From an uncultured Christensenellaceae bacterium (GTDB taxonomy: Bacteria; Bacillota; Clostridia; Christensenellales; DTU072): a DNA stretch of 64,000 bases. Shown one piece after another: positions 26,983 to 41,343 of the stretch. The stretch's first letter is position 1. Every line of letters begins with the position of its first letter. The notes beneath the pieces were generated by a model that was not told the origin of the DNA, searched no databases, and saw only the letters and a program-made list of their open reading frames with translations. Location: NCBI GenBank assembly GCA_964613035.1, contig CAZTFQ010000002.1, positions 21,901 to 85,900 of the forward strand. The letters run 5' to 3'. Made by a program: the position numbers and the translations under genes.

Positions 26983-28422
26983 TTAATTCTCTTGTACGAG
27001 GATATCGTACTCGGGCATAGGCTTGTTGCGATATTCTTCATCCATTATCGCGAGCTGTTTTTTGATTATGCCTCTCATTCTCACGGCGGGCTCCAGACAA
27101 TATTGTCTCAAGAGCTCCGTATCGACGTCGGAGGGTTGTTTCCAGTGCGGGAAGAGGAGCTTAAGATAAGCGGTCATAATCTTCTTCACGGCATTGGTGT
27201 CACGGGTATCCGCATTGTCGGGGACGACGAGGAACGCGTCCACGAGACCTTTTGAGACAACGTCTTCTCTTAACGCGTGCAATATTTCGGCGAAGTATTC
27301 CGTATTGAGGGCGAAGCCTTCCGCTTTCATACTCTCGTTCATACGAGGGAGTTTCCAGCCCTCGACGAATCCGTGGAAGCGGTCGATGAGCGCGGAGTCG
27401 CCGAAGACTTCCGGCAGTGACTCGAACATATTGACGTTGACGTCCATGACCTCGGATCTGATATTGCCGAGCAAGACCACGCCTGCGTCGCCTTTGCCAG
27501 CCTTGGTGCCGACGGTGTAGGAACCGTTCTCCAGGTATCCTTTCATCGCGCCCTGCATCTCGGACGCGTCGGGGAACTTAATGGTGCTGATTTCGTCCAG
27601 AGCGACGTAGTCGTAATTGGCGACGAGACCGTCGGTCTTTTTACTCATATCGTAGAACATTTTCGCTCTGGTCATAACGCCGCCGCTGGAGAGCCAGCCG
27701 CGCTTGCTGATCTGAGAATAGACGTAGCTTTTGCCGGTGCCCTTGGGGGCGAGCTCGATCATATTGAGTCTCTTCTCGAGGAAGGGAAGGAGTCTGGTAA
27801 GTGCCATCAATTTTCCTTCTCTAGAAGAGTATCCTTCGGGGTTATAATCCATCGCCATCAAGAGGACGTCGATCCATTCGTCCAGCTCGAAATATTTACG
27901 AGCGTTTTTATAATAATCGAGGTCGACGCTATAGGGTAAGAAATTCTTAAAGGACAATAACAGAATTCTGTTCTCCGTCTTCTTGGGGCTGACCTGAACC
28001 TGACCGTACCCCAGCTCTATTATCCCCCATATATCTCCGTCGGTGCCGAGGAGACTGTCTTTACATACGCTCCAGACCTCTTTTGAAATATAGGTGTCGG
28101 AGTTCTTCACGTCGAAGTCGGGCAGAGAAAAGCTGATTTTGTTGGCTTTGATATCGAGCGAAACGTTGATTTTCGCAAGAAACTTCACCTTTTCTCCGTT
28201 CATTATGGAATCGATGATGGCGTTCCATTCTCCCTTACGGGGGATGATGTCTTTTATCTTTTCCAAAACGAAGTCGACGTTGACGTCGCCGTTTTTGTCG
28301 GAATAGCGTTTTATGAACCAGTCTCTGATGAACGCAGGCAGGCTCAGAGCGGAAAAGATGCTCTGGACCGACGACTTTTTAACGACCATTCCTTCGAAAT
28401 ATTGTCTGACTTTTTCTTCCAT
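26983..28422 (-). CDS. P-loop NTPase, possibly BrxL-N-terminal/TIGR02688-like (uncertain family)
   Basis: Walker A LAPKGTGKSY and Walker B YDYVALDEIS. The N-terminal approximately 200-aa domain resembles the BREX BrxL N-region. A 1-nt gap separates it from the upstream AAA gene. Confidence 0.55.
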   Translation of the reverse strand: MEEKVRQYFEGMVVKKSSVQSIFSALSLPAFIRDWFIKRYSDKNGDVNVDFVLEKIKDIIPRKGEWNAIIDSIMNGEKVKFLAKINVSLDIKANKISFSLPDFDVKNSDTYISKEVWSVCKDSLLGTDGDIWGIIELGYGQVQVSPKKTENRILLLSFKNFLPYSVDLDYYKNARKYFELDEWIDVLLMAMDYNPEGYSSREGKLMALTRLLPFLEKRLNMIELAPKGTGKSYVYSQISKRGWLSSGGVMTRAKMFYDMSKKTDGLVANYDYVALDEISTIKFPDASEMQGAMKGYLENGSYTVGTKAGKGDAGVVLLGNIRSEVMDVNVNMFESLPEVFGDSALIDRFHGFVEGWKLPRMNESMKAEGFALNTEYFAEILHALREDVVSKGLVDAFLVVPDNADTRDTNAVKKIMTAYLKLLFPHWKQPSDVDTELLRQYCLEPAVRMRGIIKKQLAIMDEEYRNKPMPEYDILVQEN

Positions 28423-28423
28423 A

Positions 28424-29950
28424 TTATATCTCCATATCGTTTTCGATAACGCCTTTCATGAAGGTAATTTCTTGATTGCAAATGTGATTTTTGGACGATA
28501 TCTCGGCGACGTAGGTACCCGGGGCGTCGATATCCACGACACAACTCCAGTTGCGGATACATTTTTCGCAAGAATAATGCTTGCCGTCCAGCTTGAGATA
28601 CATTCTGTCGTAATCTCCGTCGACGTAGAATCTCAATACGGGGTTTTCTCCGGGTTGCAGAGCTATCAACGTGCTCTCGAACTCGACCGTCGGCGCGTCC
28701 TGAGCGGAGGGGGCTTGAGGTTTCTCTACGGGCTCGGGTTGTACCGCGGGCTGTTCGGGAATAATCTCGGGCACGTCGTCTTCGACGGGTTTTTCGTTAA
28801 GTGAGCGGTCCTTGCCCGCATATTCTTCGAATCGCGCGATTTCCTTTTTGTCGACCATCGGTTTGACCTTTTTTATCGCGTCTACGATATGCTTTTGGGT
28901 GACTTTCATCTCGACGTTCGTGCGGATAAAGCTATTGAGGGGGACGTCCTTGGCGCGATCGCAAATTTCGTCTATATCCGCGCCGGAATAGCCCTCCGTG
29001 AGCTTGGCGATGACGTCGAAGTCCACGTCGTCTTCTATCGGGATGTCCGACAATTGTTTTTTAAGCAGATATTTTCTAGCCGCCTTATCGGGGAGAGGAA
29101 CGTAGATTTTTTCGCTGAATCTTCCCGATCTGACCGCCGCGCCGTCTACGTCCCAGGGGCGATTGGTCGCGCCGAGAAGGAGCAGATTGGGGTTACGTCC
29201 GACGAAGCCGTCTATCTGTTGTAAAAACTCGTTGACGCGCTTATCGTTGTGGGGGTCGTTGCCGCGTTGACCGAAGAGGCTGTCCATCTCGTCGATGAAG
29301 ATGATTGCCAGCTTATCTTTTCTGGCGGTCTCGAAGAGGCTGCTGATGTTCTTTTCCGATTCTCCGACCCATTTACTGACGATATCGGAGCCTTTTATCG
29401 CATAAAAGGTCGCTCCGACCTCGTTGGCGATGGCTTTGGCTATCATCGTTTTCCCTGTGCCGGGAGGACCGTACAGGAGCACGCCGCCGCCGCTTTTTTT
29501 GCCGTAGCGGGCGTATTTCTCGGGATATTTGACGGGATTAATCATCCTCATCCTAATGGACTGCTTGACGTCCTCTAGTCCCGCAACGTCGCTGAATTTG
29601 ATGTCGGGGATGGTTGCGGCTTGCCATTGTTTGGCGTCCTCATCCGACGATGCCGCGTTTTTCTGCCCCGCGGACGGAGCCTTCTTCGGCGTAGTCTGAC
29701 CCGCCGTGCCGCCGATGACGGCGCCGCCTTCCAGATTCTCGGCGATCTCGATGAGCCTTTTCGCTCTCTCGAAGCGAGCCTTTTTCAACTCGCCGGTATC
29801 TTCTTTGGCAAGTTTTATGAGAGCCTGAGCCGCGCGGAGGAGGTTTTCTTTGGCACCGGCGACGTCTCCCCTCTGCTGGGCTTTTTTGGCGTTGTCGTAA
29901 TACATAAGAAACGTATCGTATATGAACGTGCTCTTATCTTCATCCCTCAT
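28424..29950 (-). CDS. Vps4/katanin/spastin-clade AAA+ ATPase with an N-terminal MIT-like domain and a novel Cys-containing C-terminal domain
   Basis: The MIT-like helical N-terminus is YDNAKKAQQRGDVAGAKENLLRAAQALIKLAKE. The AAA core is GVLLYGPPGTGKTMIAKA...SDIVSKWVGESEKNISSLFETARKDKLAIIFIDEMDSL, near-identical in pattern to Vps4. The C-terminal approximately 110 aa contain a CxxC...C...C arrangement. Confidence 0.85.
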   Translation of the reverse strand: MRDEDKSTFIYDTFLMYYDNAKKAQQRGDVAGAKENLLRAAQALIKLAKEDTGELKKARFERAKRLIEIAENLEGGAVIGGTAGQTTPKKAPSAGQKNAASSDEDAKQWQAATIPDIKFSDVAGLEDVKQSIRMRMINPVKYPEKYARYGKKSGGGVLLYGPPGTGKTMIAKAIANEVGATFYAIKGSDIVSKWVGESEKNISSLFETARKDKLAIIFIDEMDSLFGQRGNDPHNDKRVNEFLQQIDGFVGRNPNLLLLGATNRPWDVDGAAVRSGRFSEKIYVPLPDKAARKYLLKKQLSDIPIEDDVDFDVIAKLTEGYSGADIDEICDRAKDVPLNSFIRTNVEMKVTQKHIVDAIKKVKPMVDKKEIARFEEYAGKDRSLNEKPVEDDVPEIIPEQPAVQPEPVEKPQAPSAQDAPTVEFESTLIALQPGENPVLRFYVDGDYDRMYLKLDGKHYSCEKCIRNWSCVVDIDAPGTYVAEISSKNHICNQEITFMKGVIENDMEI

Positions 29951-29965
29951 GACGTATTCCTCTTA

Positions 29966-30550
29966 TTATTGTTTTAAGCTCTTAGCCAGTTCTTCCAGCT
30001 GGCGGTCGATATCGTTGTCCAGAGACTGCTCCTCGTCGGAAGCCTGGTTGCCTATAAGCGCCTCCAACTCGCTGTCGTCGATGTTGATGTTGGAAGACGA
30101 AATCGCGGTGAAGGTATCGTTGGTGGAGTCGAGCATGGCGTCGAGGTTGTCGGTGGTCTCTTCCACGCCCATCATCGCCGCTTCGAATTCCTTCTGGACC
30201 TTGGCGAAGTTCATATCCTTGGTAATAGCCTGCATTTCCTTAGAAACGACGCTCATTCCTTTAAGAAACTCGCCCGTCATCTGGCTCAAATCGCGCATTT
30301 GGAGAGTGTTTTGGAAATTAAGAAGCATTTCCTTGGCTTTTTTCTCCTGAGCCATAGCGGTCCTTAAGCAGCTGACTGCCAGGCTGTATTGCTGAGGAGA
30401 GCCTTGAATCTTAGCCTGTTTTGCGGATTCTACGGCTTTTTGTTTCTGAGCCTGGAGCTTGGTGATATGCTTCTCTATGTCGCGCATGGTCCTGCGCACG
30501 AGCATTCTCTTCTCCATTTCTTTTTCTTGTTTTGTCTTAAAGAGTCCCAT
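29966..30550 (-). CDS. Snf7/ESCRT-III-like protein (CHMP3/Vps24-like) with a C-terminal MIM-like motif
   Basis: The N-terminus MGLFKTKQEKEMEKRML... matches MGLFGKTQEK of Vps24. The N-terminal half is basic and the C-terminal half acidic. It ends DIDRQLEELAKSLKQ, resembling MIM1 (D/E)xxLxxRLxxL(K/R). Confidence 0.75.
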   Translation of the reverse strand: MGLFKTKQEKEMEKRMLVRRTMRDIEKHITKLQAQKQKAVESAKQAKIQGSPQQYSLAVSCLRTAMAQEKKAKEMLLNFQNTLQMRDLSQMTGEFLKGMSVVSKEMQAITKDMNFAKVQKEFEAAMMGVEETTDNLDAMLDSTNDTFTAISSSNINIDDSELEALIGNQASDEEQSLDNDIDRQLEELAKSLKQ

Positions 30551-30561
30551 AATAATTACCT

Positions 30562-31164
30562 CTAGATGGAAGAGCTCTCGCTCTGCTTGTTTTCTTCTTC
30601 GGATATCTCGGAGCCGAAGTTTTCCGCGTCTTTTTCCGAGCCGGATATTTCAAACATACTGAGGAGTTGATCGTCCTGCTCGTTGATTCCGTAGATGCGT
30701 TCGTCCGCCTCGTAGGCGTCCTCGACTTCTTCGAAGGTCTCCAAAGTCTCCGACAGCATACTTTCGCTACGCATTTTTTGTCCGGATATTCCGCTGATAA
30801 ACTTACGGAGCGCGTTGGTGTCCGTAAGAAGCTTGTTGATAGGCATATCGGAATTGTTGTTGATGAATTCCTTATCGTCTATTGCGGTCTTGAGCTGATT
30901 GAGCGCGAGAAGATTGGCGTTGAGATACTGGATGCGCTGATTAGCCATCTGATTCTCTTTACGTAAAAGATTGATACGCTTGGCAAGAGTCAACTGTCTG
31001 TCGCGGCTCTTGGTCTCGCTACCAGCCTTAAGGAGCTTCTCTATCTCTTTTTCCCTCTCCTCGACGGCGTCCATTTCTTCTTGCTGTTTTTTCTCGACGT
31101 TGATTATGTTTTCCACAACGTCGCTACGTTTGATTTTCTCAAACTTATTCTTAAAAAAGCACAT
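30562..31164 (-). CDS. Snf7/ESCRT-III-like paralog (200 aa)
   Basis: The N-terminus MCFFKNKFEK follows the same M-[GC]-[LF]-F-[KQ]-x-K pattern. It is predicted coiled-coil with a basic N-half and an acidic C-tail. Confidence 0.6.
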   Translation of the reverse strand: MCFFKNKFEKIKRSDVVENIINVEKKQQEEMDAVEEREKEIEKLLKAGSETKSRDRQLTLAKRINLLRKENQMANQRIQYLNANLLALNQLKTAIDDKEFINNNSDMPINKLLTDTNALRKFISGISGQKMRSESMLSETLETFEEVEDAYEADERIYGINEQDDQLLSMFEISGSEKDAENFGSEISEEENKQSESSSI

Positions 31165-31166
31165 TT

Positions 31167-31520
31167 TTATACCCCCGCCAGACTGTTGCGCTCAACAATC
31201 ATTATCCTGACGTCGTTGATTTTATCGAGAATTTTTCCTTCGTTTTTATCTCCGGATATCAGAATCTTGATATCGTCCAGCTTATCCGCTATTTTGTCGT
31301 CTTCTTTCATGACTGCGGGTGCGGTGGAAGGCGCGCCGTACTCGACGAGTTCTTCCAGCTCGCGGAGCTTCTCTTTGACGACGTCGGACTCGGACATCGC
31401 TATCAGAGTCTTGACCTTGGCAAGATTGATACGCAGGGTCTCGACGTTATCCTTTATCGCCTCGTCGTGCTTGTCGTATTGTTTTTGATGTTTTTTATAC
31501 TTGGATTGGAAAAAACACAT
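31167..31520 (-). CDS. Short Snf7/ESCRT-III-like paralog (117 aa)
   Basis: N-terminus MCFFQSKYKK. Helical with charge asymmetry. Perfect RBS AAGGAG. It lies 2 nt from the next gene. Confidence 0.5.
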   Translation of the reverse strand: MCFFQSKYKKHQKQYDKHDEAIKDNVETLRINLAKVKTLIAMSESDVVKEKLRELEELVEYGAPSTAPAVMKEDDKIADKLDDIKILISGDKNEGKILDKINDVRIMIVERNSLAGV

Positions 31521-31532: not shown

Positions 31533-32468
31533 TTATTGTAATCTGTTGCCGCATTTGTTGCAGAACAATGCGTCCGCGCTGACCTTGGCGCCGCACTTGG
31601 AGCAGTATCTGCATACTTCAGCATTGCTGTTGACCACTACCTTGGGTCCGCTGTTTTTCTCGGCGTCCGCGGCGACTTCCGCAAGTTTGACGGTAGCGTC
31701 CACGTACATCTTGGCTGCTTCTTGTCTGGAAGCTCTTTCCTTAGAAAAACTACTGTCTTTAAGCTCGAGAAGTCTCTTTTGTTTGAGAATGGCTTCCAGC
31801 TCTCTGATATCGCTGTCGGCGATTTTGACGTCGTTGAGAGAGAACGCCGTTATTTCCACGCCGTAGTCGTCGAACATCTTTCTGACGCTGTCCAAAATGG
31901 TGTCGCAGATGATTTCCAGATTGGAATTGATCTCGAAATAGCTTATCTTGCTACGCTGCATGGCGTTGGCGATGATGTCCTTGATTTTTACGAGCATTTT
32001 ATCCGCGAAAAACTTCTGGAGCCCGACCGTGGTTATGCCCGCGGTGTTGCCTACTACCTTGGAGATAAACTTACGAGAATTGCTGATATTGATATCGAAA
32101 GAGCCGTGCATTCCTACGTTGACGATATAGTCCGCGAAGGGATCTCTGACTTTCATCTGAGAGGGCGTGCCCCACGGTACGATCAGAGTAACGGTCTTGT
32201 TGACGAAAAACGCCTGACATTTAAAAGGCTCGCTGACGATCTTCTTGCCTATGCCCAAGAATCCTTTCGATACGACGGGCACGTTGAGAGAGTGCTTACC
32301 CGGCAACATCGTGTCCAACATCTGTCCGTCCTTAATAAATACGACTTCGTGAGAAAAAGGAACGATTACCTCTGTCTCCCCTATACATTGCTCGATCTGA
32401 GACTGCCAAACGATAACCTCGTTGGGTCCCTCATAGTCGATAATGGTTTTCGGTAAATCTTTTGCCAT
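31533..32468 (-). CDS. SPFH (stomatin/prohibitin/flotillin) domain protein with a C-terminal Zn-ribbon (COG4260-like)
   Basis: The N-terminus IIDYEGPNEVIVWQ is typical of this SPFH subfamily. The C-terminus carries CRYCSKCG...CNKCG. Confidence 0.7.
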   Translation of the reverse strand: MAKDLPKTIIDYEGPNEVIVWQSQIEQCIGETEVIVPFSHEVVFIKDGQMLDTMLPGKHSLNVPVVSKGFLGIGKKIVSEPFKCQAFFVNKTVTLIVPWGTPSQMKVRDPFADYIVNVGMHGSFDINISNSRKFISKVVGNTAGITTVGLQKFFADKMLVKIKDIIANAMQRSKISYFEINSNLEIICDTILDSVRKMFDDYGVEITAFSLNDVKIADSDIRELEAILKQKRLLELKDSSFSKERASRQEAAKMYVDATVKLAEVAADAEKNSGPKVVVNSNAEVCRYCSKCGAKVSADALFCNKCGNRLQ

Positions 32469-32486: not shown

Positions 32487-33815
32487 TTAATACATATTTT
32501 TTTTGCTTTCCAGCAATGAAGCTTTTTGTTCCAGCCACTCCGCAAAACCGTTGATTTCCACCAACTTGGACTCGTAGCCGCCGCGCAGTCTGCCCATCTC
32601 GTCCAGAATCTGCATCATATGAGAATCGTCCCAGGATCCCGTGAGTCGTCCGAGCGCGTAGAGACACTCCGTGATGACGTTATTTTGCCCGTTGCCGTAG
32701 TCTCTCAATTTCCTCGCCAACAACCTCAGCGCCTCGGGATTGGTACGGACGTCTCCGCCGCCCGTCGAATAAGAACCGCGAACGCCTTCCGCCGATACGG
32801 AACCGCCCGACGACGATTCTCTGCCTCCGCCGTACGAAGGAGCTCTTTTCTCGGGAGCTTTTTCGGGAGCCTTCTCGGGGGTTGCTTTTTCCTTTTCGGC
32901 GACAGGCTCGGAAGCCTTTTCTACGGGTTTCTTTTCCTCGCGGACGAATTGTTTCGCCGCCAATCGAAGAATTCCTTCGAAGTCGCCGTTGCCTATCTCG
33001 AAATAAGGATTGCGCTTGAGTTCCGACGGCATATCGTCGATATCGCAGTCGTACAAGGCGAGGCAGGCTTTTTTGGACGGATCGCTCTTAGCCATCCGCA
33101 GATAACGTCTCCAGACGTCTTCCGCCTGCGTGAGGTTGCAATTGTCAAGCGACGACGTCATTACTATCAACAGCTTGGCTTTCGATATCGCGTTGTAAAG
33201 ATACGGTTCGCGTTCGGTCGGTCCGAGATTTCCCAACTCCGCGCCGCTCCAGAAAACCTTCTTTTTCGTACGTGCTTTCAGTGCCGCGACCAGAGGCATC
33301 GCCAGGGACGCTTCCGGGGAATATTCCTCGCAACACACCATGATGTCGTAGTCGGATTCTTTAGCTATTCTTAAGGCGTTGTTACGCAGTCTGTCCAGCT
33401 CTTCCGCCTTGTAAGCGTATTCTTCCGCCATACTCCCGGGACATAGCGACATGGCTTTTTTATAATAAGCGCTGTCGAAAAACGATTGCGAGCCGATTTC
33501 GTAAAACACCGGACACAAACCATCGTCGTATTTTGAATAAGTCAGGTGCTTGGACGCCAGCATCAATCCCCAGGCGGCTTCGAAGCTGTCGGGGGCATCT
33601 TTCAAAATAGACTCGTAGTCTTCCATCGCCTCTTCGAACTTCGCTTTCCGTCTATACGCGCTCGCGCGGTTAAGATTGATAATGAGCTCGTCGGAGACTT
33701 TAGTAAGATCTATTTCGAACTTCGAATGACAATATATGCACTCGTAGGAGCCCTCGGCCACCTTTTCCAGCGCGCCTCCGCACATTTGACATTCCAGTTT
33801 TCTTAGTTCTGCCAT
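32487..33815 (-). CDS. Zn-ribbon/TPR-like protein with a possible TIR-like (flavodoxin-fold) domain, a PEK-rich linker and a helical C-domain
   Basis: The N-terminus is CQMCGG...YECIYCHSKF. The middle block DIMVCCEEY...KKKVFWSGAELGN...KAKLLIVMTSS has a TIR-like beta-alpha pattern. A (PEKA)n linker follows. The ATG at 33815 overlaps the upstream stop (TGATG). Confidence 0.5.
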   Translation of the reverse strand: MAELRKLECQMCGGALEKVAEGSYECIYCHSKFEIDLTKVSDELIINLNRASAYRRKAKFEEAMEDYESILKDAPDSFEAAWGLMLASKHLTYSKYDDGLCPVFYEIGSQSFFDSAYYKKAMSLCPGSMAEEYAYKAEELDRLRNNALRIAKESDYDIMVCCEEYSPEASLAMPLVAALKARTKKKVFWSGAELGNLGPTEREPYLYNAISKAKLLIVMTSSLDNCNLTQAEDVWRRYLRMAKSDPSKKACLALYDCDIDDMPSELKRNPYFEIGNGDFEGILRLAAKQFVREEKKPVEKASEPVAEKEKATPEKAPEKAPEKRAPSYGGGRESSSGGSVSAEGVRGSYSTGGGDVRTNPEALRLLARKLRDYGNGQNNVITECLYALGRLTGSWDDSHMMQILDEMGRLRGGYESKLVEINGFAEWLEQKASLLESKKNMY

Positions 33816-35923
33816 CACGCACCTCTGTTGCTATCGAGAGCGCTGCCCGAAAAAGCCGTCGAAGAGACGTCGCAATCTTCTTTATAGACGACCTCGACCA
33901 GAGACGTACAATTGCCGAAGGCGTATTCGCCGATAGTGTCGGCGTTGCGGCAATCGACCACTCTCAGCCCGACACAATCGAAAAACGCATAACTGCCGAC
34001 GTTGCCTTCCACGAACACCTTTTTAAGGGACTCGGGGACTTCGTAGCCGCCGAAAAAGTATGCGAGACCCGAGACGTAAGTACCGCCGTTGGTGAGGCTT
34101 TGGACCGTCAACTCCTCTAGTCCCGTGCATCCGTACAACGCACCGTATCCGAAATCTGCGCTACAGGGTAAATCTAATTTTTTAAGAGAGCGACAATTGG
34201 CGTACGCGTTCTCTCCCACGTATATGAAAGTGTTGGCGGAATAAGTCTTGACGGTTATTTTTTGTACATCGATGAGATTGGCAAAGACTTCCGAAGGAAT
34301 AGAGCAAGTCGACGACAAGCTTGTACGCGCGTTGCTGTATTCCACTATTTTCAACGATTTAGGTATATAACTTCTTATTGTGGATTCATTTAAATCGCCG
34401 TCGTATTTCGTCGCACCGAAAAATCTCGAAATACTAGAATTACTAACGTTGTCGAGGTTGTCCTCGAAGACGAGTTTTTGGAGATTTTTGCATCCGGACA
34501 GCGCGCCCTGTTCGATGAGTCTGATATTGTCGCCGATAGTCAGAGAGATTATCGCCTCGTTGCCGCGGAAAGCGTTTGCTCCCAGTCCGACGACGTCGTA
34601 TTCCGTACCGTTGAGCGTAACCTTCTCGGGCACGACGACCTCGTAGTATCCGGGATAAGACGACGATTCCTCACTATCAGGGAAGCTCTTCACGCCCTCT
34701 ATACGCGCGACCAAATCTTCGTTGTCGAAGGAAAGACTGAAAAGATATCCTTCGTCTGAGAGGTTGTATTCTCCCGCCGTGAATCCTTTTAAGAACAAAT
34801 ATCCGCCGGTAAGACCTACCGCCAGGACGAGTATCAACACGATGAAGCTCGTCCAGAGTCTGCCTTTATACTGAGGCGCGTATTTACATTTATGTTTGAT
34901 TTTCTTCCAAGTTACGGGGTCTTCTATTACGATAACGCCTTCCTTCTTCTTGCCGGACTTCTTTTTCTTATGTCCGATAATAAGGAACAGCACGTTGAAC
35001 ACCAGCGAAAATCCCGCCAGACCGAGTCCCAAGAAACAGGCGATTATGTAAAACGCATACGCGCTAAGCATGAGTTCTTCTTGCGCCAGCATCGCGAGAG
35101 GTCCCGCGAAAACAGCCAGCGCCGCGCCCGACGCCACGCCGATGATCATCGACAACCAGGACATGAGCGTGCCTTTTCTTCTGCCTCTCTTTATCTTCTC
35201 GTCGACGCACTGCGCGAGGTCCGCGGTATGCTTTTTACTGTTACTTTTAATAACTGAATAGTTTTTTTTGTATTTTTCGGCGATGGCGTCTTCCTTATTG
35301 CGATATTCGTCCAGATGCGCCTCGAACTTGTCGTTATTCTTGAAGCTTACCTCGGCTTTGGAAGAGAACACGTGAGGATAAGTACCGCGTCTAAGGTCGT
35401 GAAAATCGGCTTCTGCCGTCTCCCAAACCTCTTCCGAATAACCTTTCATCCGATCGGAAACGAAAGACTGCTGAAGATACTTCTTCCCTGCGGAAACGTT
35501 GGATTTTATTTGTTTTTTCTCGGTCGACAATATTTCCGAGTCTTCTTCGATAGGCTCGAGAACGATTTCTTCCGTTTTCTTTTTCCCGCGCTTTTTAGAA
35601 GCCGATTTGTCTTCTTTGGGAGAGGGGGCTTCTACAACTTCTTCGACGACTTCTTCGTCGTCCTCGGATTCCTCCGCGAAAAACGCCTCGATATCGTCCT
35701 CGTAGTCGGAGTCGTCTTCTTCGTCTTCTTCGTAGTATTCTTCCTCTTCGACTATTATATCGTCGTCGTATTCTTCGTTGACGGAAATAGTCGACTCTTC
35801 GTCGGAAGCGACTTCTTCGGATTTCTTATTAGCCTCTTCTTGCGCCAGCATGTTTTGCTTCTCTTCAAGAAGTTTTTTCAACTCTTCGATGGTTAAATTG
35901 TTGAGATCGTCTTTTTTACCCAT
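33815..35923 (-). CDS. Membrane protein: hyper-acidic cytoplasmic N-region, 3-4 TM helices and an extracellular BspA-type leucine-rich-repeat domain
   Basis: An EEYDDDIIVEEEEYYEEDEEDD tract. Hydrophobic helices lie around residues 255-360. The C-terminal repeats with IGEYAFGNCTSLVEV are typical of BspA-like LRRs. Confidence 0.65.
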   Translation of the reverse strand: MGKKDDLNNLTIEELKKLLEEKQNMLAQEEANKKSEEVASDEESTISVNEEYDDDIIVEEEEYYEEDEEDDSDYEDDIEAFFAEESEDDEEVVEEVVEAPSPKEDKSASKKRGKKKTEEIVLEPIEEDSEILSTEKKQIKSNVSAGKKYLQQSFVSDRMKGYSEEVWETAEADFHDLRRGTYPHVFSSKAEVSFKNNDKFEAHLDEYRNKEDAIAEKYKKNYSVIKSNSKKHTADLAQCVDEKIKRGRRKGTLMSWLSMIIGVASGAALAVFAGPLAMLAQEELMLSAYAFYIIACFLGLGLAGFSLVFNVLFLIIGHKKKKSGKKKEGVIVIEDPVTWKKIKHKCKYAPQYKGRLWTSFIVLILVLAVGLTGGYLFLKGFTAGEYNLSDEGYLFSLSFDNEDLVARIEGVKSFPDSEESSSYPGYYEVVVPEKVTLNGTEYDVVGLGANAFRGNEAIISLTIGDNIRLIEQGALSGCKNLQKLVFEDNLDNVSNSSISRFFGATKYDGDLNESTIRSYIPKSLKIVEYSNARTSLSSTCSIPSEVFANLIDVQKITVKTYSANTFIYVGENAYANCRSLKKLDLPCSADFGYGALYGCTGLEELTVQSLTNGGTYVSGLAYFFGGYEVPESLKKVFVEGNVGSYAFFDCVGLRVVDCRNADTIGEYAFGNCTSLVEVVYKEDCDVSSTAFSGSALDSNRGA

Positions 35924-35976: not shown

Positions 35977-36252
35977 TTATTTTATCAGCCCCGAGTATCT
36001 CTCCATTATGTCGAGCCTCTGCGTCACGCCGTCGTCCACCGTCGCTCTGTACGCCGCCACGACTTGCAGAAGAGCCTCCAGCTCCGATAATATCTCTCCC
36101 GTGAGATTGTCTATACTCTTCTCCGTCGCGATATCGCTAAGAGAATCTTTTAGCAGGATATACTCGGACTCTATTCTTTCGTGAAGTTCCGCCGTACACG
36201 CTCTGAAAGCGAGAAGCTTCTCGGGAGTGTTATCTATCGTTATTCCGCTCAT
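35977..36252 (-). CDS. Small helical protein (92 aa)
   Basis: The ORF-track N-extension overlaps the upstream gene. The internal ATG at 36252 gives a 4-nt overlap (ATGA) with the upstream stop, typical of translational coupling. Confidence 0.45.
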   Translation of the reverse strand: MSGITIDNTPEKLLAFRACTAELHERIESEYILLKDSLSDIATEKSIDNLTGEILSELEALLQVVAAYRATVDDGVTQRLDIMERYSGLIK

Positions 36253-36761
36253 AGACCGAATCTCCTCGCGTTGAGATATTCTCCGACGCAATTTTCGCAG
36301 GCGTCGACGAGTGCCGCTCTCGCTCCGAATGTCTCTCCCAGAGCGTTGAGCAATCGGCTGATTTCCGAAGTGAGCTCGTCGGCTCTCTCTATCCTTTTGT
36401 CGACGAAACCGCATATCTCCTCTATAACGGAGATATTGGCGGAGAGCTCTTTACAAAACTCGTCTATTCCGTCGATGTCGGCGGCAAGTTTTTCAGACTC
36501 GCCTTCGTTTTTGTCAAACAACTTTTCCTCGCTGCTGACGGAAACGAGATCGTTTTCCATGGCGACGCGTCTGGTGTTGCGCTCTTCGATGATGGCGTTA
36601 AGTTTCCTCTTCTTGTCCTCGAGATTTTCGCGGACGGACGAGGCGATTTCTCTTGCCGCGGCTATTTCCGAGGAATACGCGCCGACGTTTTCCGCAATCG
36701 TCGCGTACAGCTTGAAATAGACGTTCTTTGCCGCTTCTATCGCGTCGAGATTGACTTTCAT
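36249..36761 (-). CDS. Coiled-coil protein (170 aa)
   Basis: RBS GGAGGAG. Heptad-like helical sequence. Stop/start overlaps on both sides. Confidence 0.5.
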   Translation of the reverse strand: MKVNLDAIEAAKNVYFKLYATIAENVGAYSSEIAAAREIASSVRENLEDKKRKLNAIIEERNTRRVAMENDLVSVSSEEKLFDKNEGESEKLAADIDGIDEFCKELSANISVIEEICGFVDKRIERADELTSEISRLLNALGETFGARAALVDACENCVGEYLNARRFGL

Positions 36762-37021
36762 CGGTTCTCCTCCGCACGCGCATACGCCGCTCTCAAAAGG
36801 TTGTCGAGGTCTTCCGCGGGTACTGCCGCCACCGCCTCGTTGAGGGCGGTAAAGAATTCTTCGTCGCTTCTTTTCAACAAGAGCGCGACGTTACTGAGAT
36901 CTTCTATTCCGCTACCGAGAACCGCCGCGCCTACTTCGTCGTCCCATTCCGCGGACAACTCGTCGATAGACGCGCGGGCTTCCGCTATAGCCGCCAGACA
37001 ATCGTCGATATACTTACTCAT
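36758..37021 (-). CDS. Small helical protein (87 aa), WXG100-sized
   Basis: All-helical and acidic with a central W (AEWDDEVG). It has 4-nt overlaps with its neighbours. Confidence 0.5.
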   Translation of the reverse strand: MSKYIDDCLAAIAEARASIDELSAEWDDEVGAAVLGSGIEDLSNVALLLKRSDEEFFTALNEAVAAVPAEDLDNLLRAAYARAEENR

Positions 37022-37284
37022 GAGTCAAGATACATACACAGCCAGTTGTAAACTTCCTGACAAAAGCCGTCTATGGCGTTGAGTCTGCCGAGAATTTCCG
37101 ACAAGTCTGCCGTTATTCCCTGGAAGTTGTTAAGAAACTTGACCACGTTGGCGTCTTTCCATTCCGACAGACTCTGTTCTATCTCCGACACCATCTCGGA
37201 ATGATTTTGGACAAGCGCCTGCTCGGTCTGTCTCACTATGTTCTGAGCCGTCAGTACGGACTCTTTGCTTACGTTGACGTTCAT
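37018..37284 (-). CDS. Small helical protein (88 aa), WXG100-sized
   Basis: RBS GAGGAAAGA. Helix-turn-helix-like hairpin with a central SEWKDA. Confidence 0.5.
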   Translation of the reverse strand: MNVNVSKESVLTAQNIVRQTEQALVQNHSEMVSEIEQSLSEWKDANVVKFLNNFQGITADLSEILGRLNAIDGFCQEVYNWLCMYLDS

Positions 37285-37292
37285 TCTTTCCT

Positions 37293-37559
37293 CTACTTGA
37301 GCGTAATGCTTCTATATAAGTCGATGAGCTCTTGTTTTTGCCTGATGACGTTTTCGACGCCGTCGGTCTTGGAAACCAGCTCGTCGGCAATCGACAACAA
37401 CTTGACCGCGACTTCTTCCGCGTCGGCGTAATCTCGGTCGGCACAATTCTCTTTCAGCGCCTGTACTTTACGCAGATAATCGACGCACGCGTCTCTTACT
37501 TCTCCGACGACTCTTCCGAGCGCTCCCTCGTCTACGGAACCGCTTACCTTTACTTCCAT
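37293..37559 (-). CDS. Small helical protein (88 aa)
   Basis: Helical. It overlaps the 3' end of the upstream ATPase gene by 10 nt. Confidence 0.5.
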   Translation of the reverse strand: MEVKVSGSVDEGALGRVVGEVRDACVDYLRKVQALKENCADRDYADAEEVAVKLLSIADELVSKTDGVENVIRQKQELIDLYRSITLK

Positions 37560-40500
37560 AGAGCGTTATAATCCTCTGCCAGCTTAACCATCCAGGCTTC
37601 GTCCGCTTCGCTGTAGTATCTGTACGGCTTAAACTTATTCATCTCGTTGTTGACGAGGCATACGCCCAGTCCTTCTATGCCGATATTGATATTGCTTCTA
37701 AACGATGCGACCGATGTGACGGCTTCCGCGTCGAGTCCCTTGATGAAGACCTTGTTCTGACAATTACGCATAACGGTATTGATGCTGGGGACGCTGGACG
37801 GCTTGTCTATCGAGAACACTATATGAATATTCTGGTTGGGTCCGTTTTCGAACACGTCGTTGAACAGTTGCGAAAAAGTCATCTTGTTGCCGCCGGAAGA
37901 CGCCGCGCCGCCTAAGTTGAGTCCGAGACTGAACCCCATTCCGGACGATGACGCCACGGGTGCGGGGGCGGGTTTTTCGGACAAATCGATGAGCTTGGAG
38001 TTGTCCTTGAAGTAAGACGCTATCTCCTGAATTTTGTTTATGAACAGGAATATCGGATTGTGCTTATCCTGAATATGGTCTGCTCTCTCTTTTCTGAGAT
38101 TATGAAGCTTGACCAGAGCATCGGTGAGATCTCCCGCGGCATTCAAAACGCGAGTCGAATCCGCGAAATACTTAGGCAGGACGAAGAACAGGTCGTCGGG
38201 GTTTTTCTGACTGATGACTTCGCCGTTGAAGTAGTACACCTGCGCGGAGGAGTCGTTTTCAAAGTCTTGGTTGGTACGGTTTTCCATAAGCACGGACAGC
38301 ATGGAAAAGCCCATCATATCTCTCAGCACCTCTACGTTGGCGCCGGCGAACCACAGGTTGGAATTGGACTCGCGCAGACGTATCGGGATATTGTACGGCT
38401 TGCCGGAGATGTAATCCTGACCGATAGCCAGATTGTAGAAGTCGGCGGACTTGGAGACGATATCTTCTTTCGAGACTTTTTTCGTGTAAGCGGAGAGACC
38501 CTCGTTGGCTTTGGGCTCTTCGAGGTTGCTGCCGACGACGAAGAGCGGCTCTCTGACGCTCCACTTGGAGACGACGTCTTGCCACTTCTCTATAATGCGC
38601 TCGGAATACATCTCTCTGTTGTCGGAGTTTTCCGCATACGCCACGCGGAATTCAGCCGCGTTCTGTCCAGTACGGGTATCCTTGATGATGCCTACGCCCA
38701 AGGTATTGGACAAATTGGCTACTTTAGATACGCTTATGCCCAGTTCTTGCGCGTCGTCGGGATTGTTGAGTTTAAGAGAAATTCTGTTGCCTATCTGAGA
38801 AATGACCTTGTCTCTGAGTCCCGCCACCTTAGGCACGTTCTGCGACGCCCAGAGCACGTTGATGCCGAAAGCTCTGCCTTTTTTGAAGAGCTTGGACATA
38901 AGATTGATGGCGTAGGTGCCGACGTTTTGGTCGCGCTCGAACAGTTCCTGAACCTCGTCGATGATGACAAGCAGTCTCGGGAGCGTCTTACCGGCACGCT
39001 TCTTGTATTGCATGATGTCTTCCACGTTGTTGTTGCGGAAGAGCGCCTCTCTTCTCTCCAGCTCTTTGTCTATGTTGGACAACACCGCGAGTCCGTCCTC
39101 GGGGTCGGAAGAAAGCGCCGTCAGCTTGACGTGAGGAAGTTGTTTTTCTACGTTCTTGTTGGCTTCGTAATACTTGAATTCCACGCCGCCCTTGAAGTCG
39201 ACCAGGTAGATGTTGAGGTCGTCGGGGCTGTACTTATAGCACGCGGACATAACGATGGCGTGGAGTAGGTTGGACTTACCGCTACCGGTACCGCCTATCG
39301 CCAGAGCGTGAGCCGCGCCGTCGCCCTTGGACGAAAACGCCAGAGTCTGAACGTCTCCGCCTCTCATACCTATCGGGATATCGATAATCTCCGTAGGATC
39401 CGCGTAATCCTCGCTCTTGACGACGACGTCGGTGCTGTCGAACATCTTGGACAGTGCGATAACCTTGTTGGCGCTCTTCTTGATGTTCTGTTTCATAACC
39501 TTGATGTAGTCGTCCAGCTTTTCGTACGAGCAGTCTTTATTGTTTTCGAAAACGTATTTGGGATTGGCTTCCAAATAAATTTCGCCGCCCTTAACGAGGA
39601 AATAATTCATCGATTGCTTCGCCTCCGCGACGAAGTCTTTTATGTACTGGGGCTGAGTGCCCTTGCCGTTGTACAGCATTATCGTGAATATACCGGAACG
39701 ATTGCCGTTGTCGATGATTTTTTTGAGTCTCTTGACGGTCTTCTCGCTGCTGAAACATTCCGGGAAACCGACTATCGACAACACCGAGAACGCCTGGGGG
39801 TCGTTTTCGGAAACGACGTTGTAACCGTAGATGTCTTTTTTGTTGCTACGAGTGATTTTATCGTCGTAGATACTGCCCATTCTCTCGTCAAGATTGACAA
39901 TCTCGTTGGACACTCTCGAATCGTCGTTGTAAGTCTTTTTGAATAGATTGTTGTCGATGTTGTTGAGCTGGTTGAACGCGGCGAATTCTCCCGTATCGTA
40001 GAGGTCTATCAGTTGATAATTGACCCTCGTCGGCGGGAACCCCATCAAAAACGACAACATAATGTTGCGCACCATCGATATGGCGACCGCATTATCCTTG
40101 TCGGAATCCACTTCTATCAAAACGTTGCCGTTCTTTTTCAACTCCAGCACGTACGGCGCGGTCAGTACGCCGCCGGGCGTGTATTTGCCGAGTAAGGGAC
40201 TGTCGGTAGAATTGATATATTTTTTGTAGCCGTCCTTATCGAGATAACTGATCTTCATATCGCCGAGAGTCAGCTTGGTGGGATAAGTAAGACTGCCTTT
40301 TTCGAAGTCTACCTTGCCGCTCTTGGCAGACTCGTAAATGTCGCAAAAACGGTCGTCGTTGAGAACATTGTCTTCTACCTGAAGTCTGTTCTTGAGAGCG
40401 GAAGCCATCTCCTTATTGAGGACCGCCGCGCAATCTGCCATATATTCTTCCGACTGCTTTTTGAGATGTTTATCGAATTTTTTAAGGTCGAAACGTCTCC

Positions 40501-41086
40501 TTATCATCGTTTCCATGGAGTCGAGGACCATACGGCACTGAGAAGCCTTCCCGTACAGCTCTCTCATCAGGTCCGTATAAGGCGTCCCGTAGACGCCGTA
40601 CTCCTTGGAGTCGCCGAGCGTTACGGTCCTCTTCCCGTCGCGATCGTTGATTACGAAGCTCTCCGCTCTGCCTTCTACGGAGAGAACCTCGGGAATGGGT
40701 TCGGTCGCCTCCAAATCGAGGTCGTTGAGAGCCTCTACGAGAGCGTTCATTTCCGCACACAGTCTTTTGACGGTGTCTCTGTTGACGTCGTAGTCGAGAG
40801 AAACGATTCCTTCCTTGGGGACGTCGCCTATGTTGGCGATACTCTCTTTCATGCTATTGCCGTATGAGTCGAGGAGCTTTTGAATATCTTTTCTGACTCT
40901 GTCCACTTCCGTCTTGACGTAAGTATCGATCGACTTCTCCATCTCCTTGTAGAGCTTGGAATTGGTCTCGTCGAGAGCGTTGCGTTGCATAACGATAGCG
41001 CCGGCGATTTCTTTCTCGAAGGCGCTCAACGCGGAAAAACGAGCGTTGAAAGAATCTATCATTTTTTTGATTTCTTTGAATTCCAT
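37550..41086 (-). CDS. FtsK/SpoIIIE-family (EssC/EccC-like) ATPase with three tandem domains (one intact P-loop), no TM segment
   Basis: Central domain is GGTGSGKSNLLHAIVMS (Walker A) ... LPRLLVIIDEVQELF (Walker B). The flanking domains have the FtsK-like fold pattern but degenerate P-loops. It is the first gene of the operon, with RBS GAGAGGAAG. Confidence 0.75.
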   Translation of the reverse strand: MEFKEIKKMIDSFNARFSALSAFEKEIAGAIVMQRNALDETNSKLYKEMEKSIDTYVKTEVDRVRKDIQKLLDSYGNSMKESIANIGDVPKEGIVSLDYDVNRDTVKRLCAEMNALVEALNDLDLEATEPIPEVLSVEGRAESFVINDRDGKRTVTLGDSKEYGVYGTPYTDLMRELYGKASQCRMVLDSMETMIRRRFDLKKFDKHLKKQSEEYMADCAAVLNKEMASALKNRLQVEDNVLNDDRFCDIYESAKSGKVDFEKGSLTYPTKLTLGDMKISYLDKDGYKKYINSTDSPLLGKYTPGGVLTAPYVLELKKNGNVLIEVDSDKDNAVAISMVRNIMLSFLMGFPPTRVNYQLIDLYDTGEFAAFNQLNNIDNNLFKKTYNDDSRVSNEIVNLDERMGSIYDDKITRSNKKDIYGYNVVSENDPQAFSVLSIVGFPECFSSEKTVKRLKKIIDNGNRSGIFTIMLYNGKGTQPQYIKDFVAEAKQSMNYFLVKGGEIYLEANPKYVFENNKDCSYEKLDDYIKVMKQNIKKSANKVIALSKMFDSTDVVVKSEDYADPTEIIDIPIGMRGGDVQTLAFSSKGDGAAHALAIGGTGSGKSNLLHAIVMSACYKYSPDDLNIYLVDFKGGVEFKYYEANKNVEKQLPHVKLTALSSDPEDGLAVLSNIDKELERREALFRNNNVEDIMQYKKRAGKTLPRLLVIIDEVQELFERDQNVGTYAINLMSKLFKKGRAFGINVLWASQNVPKVAGLRDKVISQIGNRISLKLNNPDDAQELGISVSKVANLSNTLGVGIIKDTRTGQNAAEFRVAYAENSDNREMYSERIIEKWQDVVSKWSVREPLFVVGSNLEEPKANEGLSAYTKKVSKEDIVSKSADFYNLAIGQDYISGKPYNIPIRLRESNSNLWFAGANVEVLRDMMGFSMLSVLMENRTNQDFENDSSAQVYYFNGEVISQKNPDDLFFVLPKYFADSTRVLNAAGDLTDALVKLHNLRKERADHIQDKHNPIFLFINKIQEIASYFKDNSKLIDLSEKPAPAPVASSSGMGFSLGLNLGGAASSGGNKMTFSQLFNDVFENGPNQNIHIVFSIDKPSSVPSINTVMRNCQNKVFIKGLDAEAVTSVASFRSNINIGIEGLGVCLVNNEMNKFKPYRYYSEADEAWMVKLAEDYNALWK

Positions 41087-41202
41087 ATAAAGACTTCCTC
41101 TCTTCGTGCTTACTATTCTATTGCGGGCAAGGGAAGAAGTTACCGTAAAACGAGTGAAAAATTTGTCAGCAATGCGAGTCTAGTTATCTTCCCATTGTAT
41201 TT

Positions 41203-41232
41203 AATAATACAACGGGGGGGGGTACCTGTCAA
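41203..41232 (-). promoter_or_regulatory. Candidate promoter of the 15-gene operon with a G10 homopolymer in the spacer
   Basis: Minus strand TTGACA (41232-41227), an 18-nt spacer containing C10 (41213-41222 on the plus strand as G10), then TATTAT (about 41208-41203). Confidence 0.45.
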
Positions 41233-41343
41233 TACCTTGCAAGAAAAAAATAAAGGATTTTTTAAGTTTTTAGCACACTTAGCGATTGAATATTATAAAA
41301 ACGGTCGATTGCAATCGCAACCGACCGAGAACGACCGATTTTT

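Follow-up and report, generated by a model that had tools for sequence, protein, structure and literature searches.

A conserved gene cassette of uncultured Bacillota links a Snf7-family ESCRT-III protein to an MIT-AAA ATPase and an SPFH protein

[quoted passage not shown] Specifically, Makarova et al. reported in 2024 that ESCRT homologs can be recognized in archaea 'but not in bacteria' (PMC11188069), and according to a 2025 review an ATPase of the Vps4 type 'appears absent in bacteria', with none known for PspA systems (PMC7619361). Archaeal ESCRT acts in division and in DNA-carrying vesicles (PMC7619361), and in Bacillus subtilis the YdjI protein binds PspA directly and brings it to the membrane (Scholz et al. 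2021, PMC8581546). Ravi et al. described occasional bacterial Snf7 homologs, transfers of a Vps4-like ATPase with a TPR-6TM protein (TM, transmembrane) replacing Snf7, and some Snf7/PspA-AAA+ associations; the cassette presented here is not mentioned. Here, we analyzed a 64,000-nt stretch of DNA from an uncultured Christensenellaceae bacterium (hereafter, the window) and describe a gene array at 26983-41250 of its minus strand, in which a protein that homology and predicted fold assign to the Snf7 family is encoded next to an ATPase with an MIT domain and the architecture of Vps4, in one operon with an SPFH protein. No paper describing this cassette was found in the literature searched (full text), and public records label its proteins only 'hypothetical' or 'AAA family ATPase'. 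A preliminary description of this DNA, made from its letters alone, had called an ESCRT-III plus Vps4 pair undescribed in Firmicutes, which agrees with both the reviews and our search.

According to the ORF (open reading frame) listing, the array comprises 14 tightly packed, co-directional genes running from 41086 down to 26983, which we number G1 to G14 in this order (Table 1). The preliminary description had counted 15 genes, one more than we did; its picture of a co-directional minus-strand array with gaps of 1-53 nt and many overlaps is reproduced by the measured distances of -10 to +53 nt. We examined 85 loci, all but one labeled Bacillota, by searching the 14 window proteins against the ORFs of each locus. 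G12 relatives were present in all 85, homologs of G13 in 81, of G11 in 79, of G10 in 68, and of G9 in 67, and G8-like proteins in 60, while G14 was found in 17, G7 in 12, and G1-G6 in only 4-5. The genes follow the fixed order G9-G10-G11-G12-G13-(G14)-G8-like, with G13 directly after G12 in most of the mapped loci. An array whose gene order is shared by as many as 81 of the 85 independent loci lies far beyond chance, and the conserved core consists of G9, G10, G11, G12, and G13 together with a G8-type protein, in ~100 species of Bacillota. An ESCRT-III protein paired with an ATPase of Vps4 architecture and with SPFH in one operon, as had been proposed, was recovered by the neighborhood search, in which 81 of the 85 G12 loci carry a G13 homolog. 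Genomic linkage to ESCRT-III genes is also the second criterion for Vps4 given by Makarova et al. (PMC11188069), and G13 shows this linkage in the same 81 loci.

The cassette is rare. A scan of one genome per species revealed G12 relatives in 107 of 185,579 species; as labeled in the records, nearly all of these are Bacillota, and one metagenome-assembled genome (MAG) is labeled Acidiphilium. Taxa with the cassette include Christensenellales, other Clostridia, 'Coproplasma', Izemoplasmatales, Acholeplasmataceae, and Anaeroplasmataceae, all the genomes found being metagenome-assembled or uncultured, and the nearest named relatives of the window are Christensenellales and Christensenella MAGs. 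At the protein level, a full-library profile search returned 594 G12-family representatives (50%-identity) at E ≤ 0.001.

Several lines of evidence identify G12 as an ESCRT-III protein. The window protein matches the Pfam family Snf7 (PF03357) with 22.8 bits (E = 8e-5), under the gathering score of 27.3, and Snf7 is matched by 15 of 30 G12 homologs (best 2.8e-8). PspA_IM30 (PF04012) was matched by none of G10, G11, and G12 and does not occur among the listed homolog matches. An AlphaFold2 (AF2) model of G12 (pLDDT 78.9) contains helices at residues 7-49, 52-110, 113-152, and 159-193. Its top Foldseek matches, all with weak E-values (≥0.05), were S. islandicus CdvB (probability 0.99), CdvB2, CHMP2A, CHMP1B, and Asgard ESCRT-IIIB, with no PspA or Vipp1 chain in the top 50; sequence identity to CHMP proteins is low (CHMP2A, E = 0.22). 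The net charge of +10 in the N-terminal half and -15 in the C-terminal half is the ESCRT-III type of asymmetry. The N-terminal MGLFK(S/T)K and a C-terminal helix of the form I-D-x-x-L-x-x-L-x-K-x-L are conserved in the family; the former, MGLFKTKQEKE in the window protein, resembles the N-termini of CHMP proteins, and the latter resembles MIM1. Among plasmids, tblastn with G12 found one relative (E = 4e-5), on a Thermococcus peptonophilus plasmid, where the archaeal ESCRT locus around it also encodes Vps4, a Ser/Thr kinase, and a PP2C phosphatase, which is the layout of the 'Main' clade of Makarova et al. (PMC11188069). The G12 family profile scores 66.9 bits against this Thermococcus ESCRT-III protein, and hhalign aligns the two with 98.3% probability (E = 2e-14), N-terminal motif included. 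By homology and modeled fold, then, G12 is a genuine Snf7-family ESCRT-III protein and not a PspA or Vipp1, and the relationship to Snf7 rather than to PspA on which the preliminary description had staked its case stands for this protein.

The neighboring G13 has the domain layout of Vps4. Its MIT domain is backed by sequence and structure: the N-terminus matches Pfam MIT in 8 of 23 family members, and MIT domains in the PDB were matched as well. G13 further matches Pfam AAA (2.3e-41) and AAA_lid_3 (1.4e-10) and, weakly, Vps4_C, which is found in 29 of 30 family members (best 3.7e-8). The Walker A and B motifs (GPPGTGKT and DE), the pore loop (K193/V195/G196), N263, and the arginines R274 and R277 are invariant in the family. 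An alignment with Thermococcus Vps4 extends from the MIT domain to the C-terminal helix with 31% identity (8e-51), a region of the C-terminal helix across which CDC48-D2 also aligns. In a neighbor-joining (NJ) tree of 27 AAA domains, built without eukaryotic or crenarchaeal Vps4, katanin, or spastin, the G13 family and two other bacterial AAA proteins are sister to five archaeal-type Vps4s and lie apart from CDC48 D1 and D2, with 67/100 bootstrap support.

A number of results weigh against placing the AAA core itself with Vps4. G13 scores higher with the NCBIfam model of CDC48 (241 bits) than with those of CdvC (217), PAN (212), and FtsH (208), and in the PDB, where its match to p97-D2 reaches 217 bits, the top 60 contain neither a Vps4 nor a katanin chain. 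Thermococcus Vps4, used as a control, behaves differently (katanin 215 vs VAT-D2 174 bits). Likewise, CDC48-D2 reaches 191-216 bits with a hidden Markov model (HMM) of the G13 core, against 128-171 bits for archaeal Vps4. G13 also keeps the CDC48-type R-x-G-R-F stretch (A-V-R-S-G-R-F-S-E-K-I-Y-V-P-L-P), whose counterpart in p97-D2 is A-I-L-R-P-G-R-L-D-Q-L-I-Y-I-P-L-P; Thermococcus Vps4 has a deletion here, A-V-L-(gap)-S-R-F-P-K-R-I-Y-V-P-L-P, and this Vps4-type shortened arginine-finger stretch in the second region of homology is not present in G13. Finally, in several G13 homologs (686-709 aa; loci L022, L045, L051, L079, and L004) the MIT domain is followed by two AAA domains, the number found in CDC48, so that an N-terminus of Vps4 type is joined to a type II layout like that of CDC48. 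The earlier assignment to the Vps4 clade therefore divides in two: the MIT domain, the architecture, and a weak NJ grouping (67%) speak for it, whereas the scores favor CDC48-D2 and the CDC48-type R-x-G-R-F is kept. In our reading of these sequences, G13 would work like Vps4, and its AAA module would belong to a deep, CDC48-proximal lineage.

The same results could be read differently, with G13 as a CDC48-type unfoldase or regulator and the cassette as a PspA-like system of envelope stress and maintenance that stabilizes the membrane on SPFH with no ATP-driven scission. An AAA core nearest CDC48-D2 by HMM and PDB scores and the existence of double-AAA variants fit this, and a pair of SPFH and an ESCRT-III-superfamily protein that involves no Vps4 is known from PspA-YdjI (PMC8581546); the housekeeping-like chromosomal context and the lack of a defense-island signal (see below) point the same way. 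It would leave unexplained, however, an MIT domain supported by both sequence and structure, the presence of G13 alongside the Snf7-like gene in 81 of the 85 loci, the conserved MIM-like C-terminal helices, the Snf7 rather than PspA character of G12, and the grouping, albeit weak, of G13 with archaeal Vps4 in the tree. We regard a maintenance system of this type as unlikely and prefer a Vps4-like role for G13.

Two further features of the G13 region were observed. A C-terminal beta-sandwich (window positions 28424-28800) is predicted confidently (pLDDT ~90) and is missing from about half of the family; it received no family assignment, and no beta-domain is evident in the lid. In one widespread variant of the cassette, a Ppx-GppA gene (ASKHA/actin-like fold) lies between the Snf7-like and MIT-AAA genes (L005:9085-9981).

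The remaining core genes upstream of G12 encode an SPFH protein and two small helical proteins. G9, the first gene of the conserved unit, matches Pfam Band_7_1 (1e-22) and Zn_Ribbon_1 (6e-8), as expected from its earlier description as an SPFH plus Zn-ribbon protein, and hydropathy indicated no TM segment. The families of G10, G11, and G12 all begin with M-[GCW]-x-F-[KR]-x-K (consensus MxfFrKKK in the G10 family). G11 shares the ESCRT-III-type charge pattern (+3/-16), and its C-terminal IYG...DDxLLAMFE motif is invariant in the family alignment. In the Chlorohelix and Thermococcus loci, Vps4 is preceded by ~200-aa proteins, and to these the G11 profile has weak matches (17 and 12 bits; hhalign 13-32%). 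These features make it plausible that G10 and G11 are divergent ESCRT-III paralogs. Nonetheless, homology to ESCRT-III could not be demonstrated for either protein by single-sequence, profile-profile, Pfam, or PDB comparison, which weighs against a cassette with three such proteins. Specifically, G10 had no family match in Pfam and, like G11, no similarity to the G12 family as a single sequence. The G11 and G12 families align colinearly over 160 columns in hhalign but with a probability of only 11%. None of 38 G11 family members matched Pfam Snf7, the G11 profile matched no ESCRT-III protein in the PDB, and local HMM cross-searches yielded sub-threshold matches only, enriched for G10/G11. Of the three Snf7/ESCRT-III-like paralogs claimed at first, we accept G12 as demonstrably Snf7-like; the 'three Snf7 paralogs' as such were rejected on the blank single-sequence searches, the low profile-profile probability, and the sub-threshold cross-matches, the shared N-terminal motif notwithstanding.

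The homology and predicted fold of G12, the domains and catalytic residues of G13, the SPFH domain and Zn ribbon of G9, and the strict linkage of the genes support a reading in which the cassette probably performs ATP-recycled membrane remodeling of the ESCRT-III/Vps4 type on an SPFH scaffold. In such a machine, G9 would form an oligomeric platform at the membrane and recruit the small proteins, by analogy with YdjI and PspA. G12, with G10 and G11, would insert the shared M-x-x-F-K-x-K N-terminus into the bilayer and polymerize on the membrane. The MIT domain of G13 would bind the C-terminal helices of G12 (MIM1-like) and G11 (DDxLLAMFE), and its single AAA ring would extract subunits, resulting in filament turnover and constriction or scission.

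The G8-type protein is the most variable part of the core. In the window, G8 matches TPR_14 (6.7e-5) and no TIR family in Pfam, and an ortholog has a weak TIR_2 match; both TIR motifs are lost in the window clade (in the window protein, YDIMVCCEE replaces YDVFISY and AEDVWRRY replaces WxxNEW). Elsewhere the domain is intact: TIR_2 (PF13676) exceeds the gathering score in 8 of 9 distant G8-like proteins, and the WxxNE[WYF] motif, conserved Glu included, is retained in 52 of the 60 G8-like proteins. The Zn-ribbon/TPR/TIR-like protein of the preliminary description thus keeps its Zn ribbon and TPR, and its TIR-like domain is degenerate here. Conservation is limited to the first ~270 residues (Zn ribbon, TPR, TIR), and the rest of the G8-like proteins comprises 580-1500 aa of variable sequence, often with TM segments and in several cases with BspA leucine-rich repeats (LRRs). 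In other loci, single polypeptides of this type (L051:13645-18192, L022:13504-17940, L012:4984-7857, and others) run from a Zn ribbon through TPR, TIR, and more TPR to ~3 TM segments, and several continue into a BspA-type LRR ectodomain, a layout that would amount to a Toll-like-receptor-like topology in bacteria. Judged by these full-length counterparts, the receptor-like protein is split in the window into G8 and G7. G7 matches LRR_5 (3.3e-21) and has three TM segments predicted from hydropathy, in line with the acidic-TM-LRR membrane protein recognized earlier. G8 may start at ATG 33815.

Receptor-like proteins of this kind raise the possibility of anti-phage or anti-plasmid immunity, in which an LRR-TM-TIR protein would sense the invader, TIR NADase activity or signaling and nucleases or translocases would act as effectors, and ESCRT and SPFH would excise the affected patch or bring about abortive infection. 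The retention of the Glu-containing TIR motif and above-cutoff TIR_2 matches, the hypervariable C-termini of the TIR proteins, and the patchy distribution of the cassette (107 of 185,579 species) would suit such a system, as would SNF2 helicases beside some cassettes and fusions of the Snf7 domain to FtsK and to RuvB-like AAA+ proteins with NERD or TnsA nucleases (see below). G14 adds to this. It matches BrxL_ATPase (8e-114) and BrxL_N (2e-27) in Pfam, confirming the BrxL-N-like P-loop ATPase proposed before; it reaches 434.5 bits over its full length with the short BrxL model TIGR02688 (cutoff 329.3), 240 bits with the long-form model TIGR02653 (cutoff 628), and 653 bits with PADLOC BrxL (PDLC02505), and a BrxL-type gene directly follows G13 in 17 of the 85 loci. 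However, PADLOC detected no system in the operon beyond this single BrxL protein, and PglX, PglZ, BrxA, BrxB, and BrxC were not found in the operon or in the neighboring genes scanned against Pfam. In a test for defense islands, the PADLOC hits of 119 flanking proteins, drawn at random from 74 loci, were generic only, with no enrichment of restriction-modification (RM), Cas, or abortive infection (Abi) genes. G12 had no relatives in the phage collection searched, the catalytic TIR motif is lost in the window, and the operon lies beside pyrG and cysS. Immunity is a possible function, although not one that we would expect to be borne out.

The most upstream part of the array, G1-G6, is a different matter. 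G1 belongs to the FtsK/SpoIIIE family (Pfam 2.7e-30), and the closest models are of the EccC/EssC type: NCBIfam gives EccCa 2.3e-33, EssC 1.2e-30, and EccCb in a range up to 3e-24, as compared with 9e-8 for FtsK, and the PDB gives EccC (4nh0) 3.6e-27 as compared with 5e-7 for FtsK. All of these NCBIfam scores fall far under the equivalog cutoffs (116 vs 509; 106 vs 778). A primary reading of G1 as a DNA translocase was rejected, as EccC/EssC models score far above FtsK. The protein comprises a helical N-terminal region, one intact P-loop domain (~residues 560-830) with a single Walker A at residue 598, and a C-terminal region that is possibly degenerate; an internal repeat search returned nothing significant, hydropathy showed no TM segment, and Pfam showed no FHA domain. 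Accordingly, the family named in the preliminary description is confirmed, and the triple-domain organization is not, given the single Walker A and the lack of a significant internal repeat. Among the small proteins, G2, G4, G5, and G6 have no Pfam family match and G3 alone has a sub-threshold one, to WXG100 (7.5e-4; 20.2 bits, cutoff 27.3). The top PDB match of the G3 family profile, 4lws, is weak (E = 0.49), and the family's conserved W falls on the W of its W-x-G. The 145-aa ORF version of G6 is, by comparison with its relatives, over-extended; the internal start is preferred because the orthologs are 93-94 aa long and show an identical 4-nt overlap.

The G1 family is rare (~7 close clusters). 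G1-G7 are kept as a unit in close relatives (46% identity), and the position of G2 after G1 is kept in L001, L007, and L086. The block is confined to the closest relatives of the window and is a lineage-specific addition: the FtsK/EssC-like component, presented earlier as part of the conserved system, is not, as G1-G6 occur in only 4-5 of the 85 loci. The idea that all 14 genes form one conserved system is likewise rejected, G1-G7 and G14 being lineage-specific. The remotest relative of G1 (L087:1081-8262; 23% identity, 1448 aa) adjoins ThiF (E1-like) and E2-CBASS-like genes, which places an FtsK-family ATPase in a context of ubiquitin-like conjugation.

This block also suggests type VII-like secretion or vesicle export, in which G1 would recognize the WXG100-like G2-G6 and pass them to an ESCRT budding site. 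The best matches of G1 to EccC, EssC, and YukB, the alignment of the G3 tryptophan on that of 4lws, and the conservation of G1-G7 as a unit are consistent with export, and the topology of ESCRT-III scission suits outward budding. G1, however, lacks TM segments, FHA, and more than one intact P-loop domain; no operon gene matches the Pfam families for EssA, EssB, EsaA, or YukD; the WXG100 support is sub-threshold; and a block found in 4-5 of 85 loci cannot explain the conserved core. Export of this kind seems improbable to us as the function of the cassette.

Translocases of other types recur in the G12 family. In some representatives the Snf7-like domain is fused, on several independent contigs, to FtsK alpha plus motor domains or to a RuvB-like AAA+ protein with a NERD or TnsA-like nuclease (entries P0254, P0255, P0274, P0240, P0302, P0331, and P0347; L098:10001-11863). 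At L098, the Snf7-FtsK fusion stands at the head of a cassette that also encodes an SPFH protein, proteins of ~190 aa, an AAA ATPase, an LRR protein, and an SNF2 helicase. Because the Snf7-like domain is fused elsewhere to FtsK or to RuvB-nuclease proteins, the machine appears to have been coupled repeatedly to ring translocases. The link between ESCRT-III and FtsK made in the preliminary description survives in this general form, through Snf7-FtsK fusions heading similar cassettes, while the EssC-like gene of the window is a local addition.

These fusions are also the main argument for an accessory machine for division, DNA clearance, or DNA-carrying vesicles, in which ESCRT-III would constrict a neck and an FtsK-type pump would move DNA through or out. 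BrxL-type and RuvB-like ATPases are DNA-binding rings, the former being present in 17 of the 85 cassettes and the latter in the fusions. Among the carriers of the cassette are Izemoplasmatales, Acholeplasmataceae, and Anaeroplasmataceae, bacteria without a cell wall, and archaeal ESCRT works in both division and DNA-carrying vesicles (PMC7619361). Such a rare and patchy distribution makes a primary divisome unlikely, and the FtsK-family protein of the window is EssC-like, not of the DNA-pump type; we consider a role in division or DNA handling very unlikely.

A separate bacterial ESCRT locus was found on a Chloroflexota plasmid (L094, NZ_CP128401.1, Ca. Chlorohelix allophototropha, 1-4655). 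It is of the archaeal 'Main' type, with two ~200-aa proteins, a Vps4-like ATPase, and a Ser/Thr kinase, and the ATPase is 38% identical to Thermococcus Vps4 across 98% of its length, MIT region included. The Bacillota cassette is therefore not the sole bacterial case, but it represents a larger family with partners of its own.

With ESCRT-III/Vps4-type remodeling on SPFH as the preferred mechanism, the most likely role of the cassette is a response to a local breach of the envelope or to invasion, in which the membrane would be repaired or a patch of it excised, possibly with DNA or protein cargo. We rank this response to breach or invader ahead of type VII-like export, of PspA-like maintenance without scission, and of division or DNA clearance; the lack of a defense-island signal in the flanks and the degenerate TIR of the window count against it. 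Acting as a sensor, an adaptor, or cargo, the G8-type protein would tie the machine to the envelope, with the G8/G7 pair serving here as trigger, anchor, or cargo. To this, the lineage of the window adds an EssC-like ATPase and five small acidic proteins upstream and a protease-less BrxL-type ring downstream. On a bolder view, which we find doubtful, the cassette would be a bacterial Snf7/Vps4 scission machine wired to a Toll-like-receptor-like protein on SPFH and coupled to translocases and nucleases, working as an envelope immune or export organelle that would sense a surface breach or invader and then reseal or shed the membrane patch while pumping or cutting DNA or protein. If true, such an organelle would be the prokaryotic counterpart of ESCRT-mediated plasma-membrane shedding.

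The cassette would supply a bacterial model for ATP-driven ESCRT-III remodeling. It also bears on the origin of Vps4, with an AAA core that looks intermediate between CDC48-D2 and Vps4 and, in some members, two AAA domains behind the MIT domain. Through the cassette, ESCRT-III would be tied to receptor-like TIR/LRR proteins, to SPFH scaffolds, and to translocases of DNA or protein, partnerships that have clear parallels in the membrane repair and innate immunity of eukaryotes.

The flanks of the array contain genes of other kinds (Table 1). Upstream of the operon sit pyrG, cysS, and cysE-like genes, and the strong terminator-like hairpin at the end of pyrG would mark the upstream boundary of the transcription unit; the promoter-like site that follows it is a consensus match only. 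Downstream, the terminator scan revealed no comparable strong minus-strand terminator directly after G14, the next being at 23845-23820, which is likely the 3' end of the unit. Because this terminator lies past a gene for a 1017-aa surface protein, separated from G14 by a 60-nt gap with no terminator between, that gene may be co-transcribed as a 15th gene. It is missing from the same position in the relatives L001/L002, and its product lies outside the conserved system. Just past the 3' end of the operon, an 877-aa protein of unusual architecture has a thiol-activated (cholesterol-dependent) cytolysin domain (Pfam 5.7e-33) and continues into long Gly/Asn-rich repeats. A 116-aa ORF lies between the operon region and unrelated genes.

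Table 1. Positions in the window of the genes of the array and of flanking features; distances are to the next gene of the array, with overlaps as negative values.
Feature	Position	Strand	Distance to next gene (nt)	Description
G1	37550-41086	-	-10	1178-aa soluble FtsK/SpoIIIE-family ATPase, EccC/EssC type
G2	37293-37559	-	8	88-aa acidic small protein
G3	37018-37284	-	-4	88-aa WXG100-like protein, W-x-D (W-K-D) instead of W-x-G
G4	36758-37021	-	-4	87-aa very acidic protein, net charge -13
G5	36249-36761	-	-4	170-aa acidic protein; position conserved in relatives
G6	35977-36252	-	53	91-aa protein; start at internal ATG 36252, 4-nt overlap with G5 stop
G7	33815-35923	-	-4	702-aa membrane protein; acidic cytoplasmic N-terminus, 3 predicted TM segments (residues 259-378), BspA-type LRR ectodomain
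G8	32487-33818	-	18	443-aa protein; Zn ribbon, TPR, degenerate TIR-like domain, disordered linker, C-terminal helical domain
G9	31533-32468	-	12	311-aa soluble SPFH (Band_7_1) protein; coiled coil, C-terminal Zn ribbon
G10	31167-31520	-	2	117-aa helical protein; N-terminal M-C-F-F-x-x-K motif
G11	30562-31164	-	11	200-aa protein; N-terminal MxxFKxK motif, basic N-half, acidic C-half
G12	29966-30550	-	15	194-aa Snf7-family protein; N-terminus MGLFKTKQEKE, MIM1-like C-terminal helix (IDRQLEELAKSLKQ)
G13	28424-29950	-	1	508-aa Vps4-like ATPase; MIT three-helix bundle (residues 2-71), disordered linker, AAA + lid + C-terminal helix (~110-380), linker, beta-sandwich (422-499)
G14	26983-28422	-		479-aa BrxL-type AAA+ ATPase (BrxL_N + BrxL_ATPase) without Lon-protease domain
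Promoter-like site	41204-41232	-		TTGACA-17-TATTAT; 11/12 sigma-70-like consensus matches, ~120 nt upstream of G1
Intrinsic-terminator-like hairpin	41302-41327	-		11-bp stem, 7 GC pairs, T-run; ends upstream pyrG
pyrG-like ORF	41344-42939			Upstream of operon
Surface-protein gene	23869-26922	-		1017-aa; Listeria-Bacteroides repeats (Flg_new 4e-39), weak trypsin-like domain
Strong terminator-like hairpin	23820-23845	-		10-bp stem with T-run
Cytolysin-domain protein gene	21120-23753	+		877-aa
ORF	20593-20943	+		116-aa

When compared with described systems, the cassette belongs to none of the type VII secretion system (T7SS), BREX, and PspA systems, each of which shares parts with it. With the T7SS of Firmicutes (EssC/YukB plus WXG100), it has in common an ATPase domain in G1 that is nearest EccC/EssC/YukB and, after G1, acidic proteins of ~90 aa that include a WXG100-like one; unlike in the T7SS, G1 is without FHA, TM segments, and three P-loops, EssA, EssB, EsaA, and YukD were not identified, and relatives are few. 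G14 matches the short form of BREX BrxL above the curated cutoff but has no Lon-protease domain, has no other BREX genes among the scanned neighbors, and follows a Vps4-like gene. Most G8-type proteins resemble Toll-like receptors and bacterial TIR proteins such as Thoeris ThsB in having a cytoplasmic TIR_2 domain with the Glu motif, to which several add TM segments and LRRs. They differ from these in the N-terminal Zn ribbon and TPR, the BspA type of the LRRs, and the linkage to ESCRT-III, Vps4, and SPFH, with no ThsA-like partner seen; the window protein, moreover, is divided between G8 and G7 and has lost the TIR motif.

The PspA-YdjGHI system of B. subtilis (PMC8581546) is likewise found in Firmicutes and combines an ESCRT-III-superfamily protein with a soluble SPFH protein and membrane partners; YdjG even begins with a CxxC like that of a Zn ribbon (primer sequence, PMC8581546), comparable to the Zn ribbons of the cassette. 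The cassette departs from it in a polymer-former of Snf7 type, a dedicated MIT-AAA ATPase, and TIR/LRR and translocase partners. With eukaryotic ESCRT-III (CHMP), G12 shares the N-terminus, the helical hairpin, the basic/acidic asymmetry, and a MIM1-like helix, and G13 resembles VPS4A/B in its MIT domain, single AAA domain, C-terminal helix, and pore-loop stretch K-W-V-G-E-S-E-K; unlike in eukaryotes, no equivalent of ESCRT-0/I/II, ALIX, or Vta1 was found, and the arginine-finger region of G13 is CDC48-like.

In comparison with archaeal ESCRT, the host of the window operon is a member of the Bacillota, the partners are a TIR/(TM-LRR) protein and BrxL-type and EssC-like ATPases, and in the operon Pfam detected neither a kinase/phosphatase pair nor any protein of the ESCRT-II-like winged-helix, adaptin-appendage, or Cas2-like kind. 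The AAA core of G13 is more CDC48-D2-like than that of archaeal Vps4 and is accompanied by an extra C-terminal beta-sandwich. The layout, on the other hand, is alike: in the archaeal 'Main' and 'Meth_adaptin' loci (PMC11188069), too, a Snf7 protein adjoins an MIT-AAA ATPase and several ~200-aa helical proteins are encoded per locus, and the Meth_adaptin loci (PMC11188069) include an SPFH protein with a coiled coil and a Zn ribbon, as does the cassette with G9.

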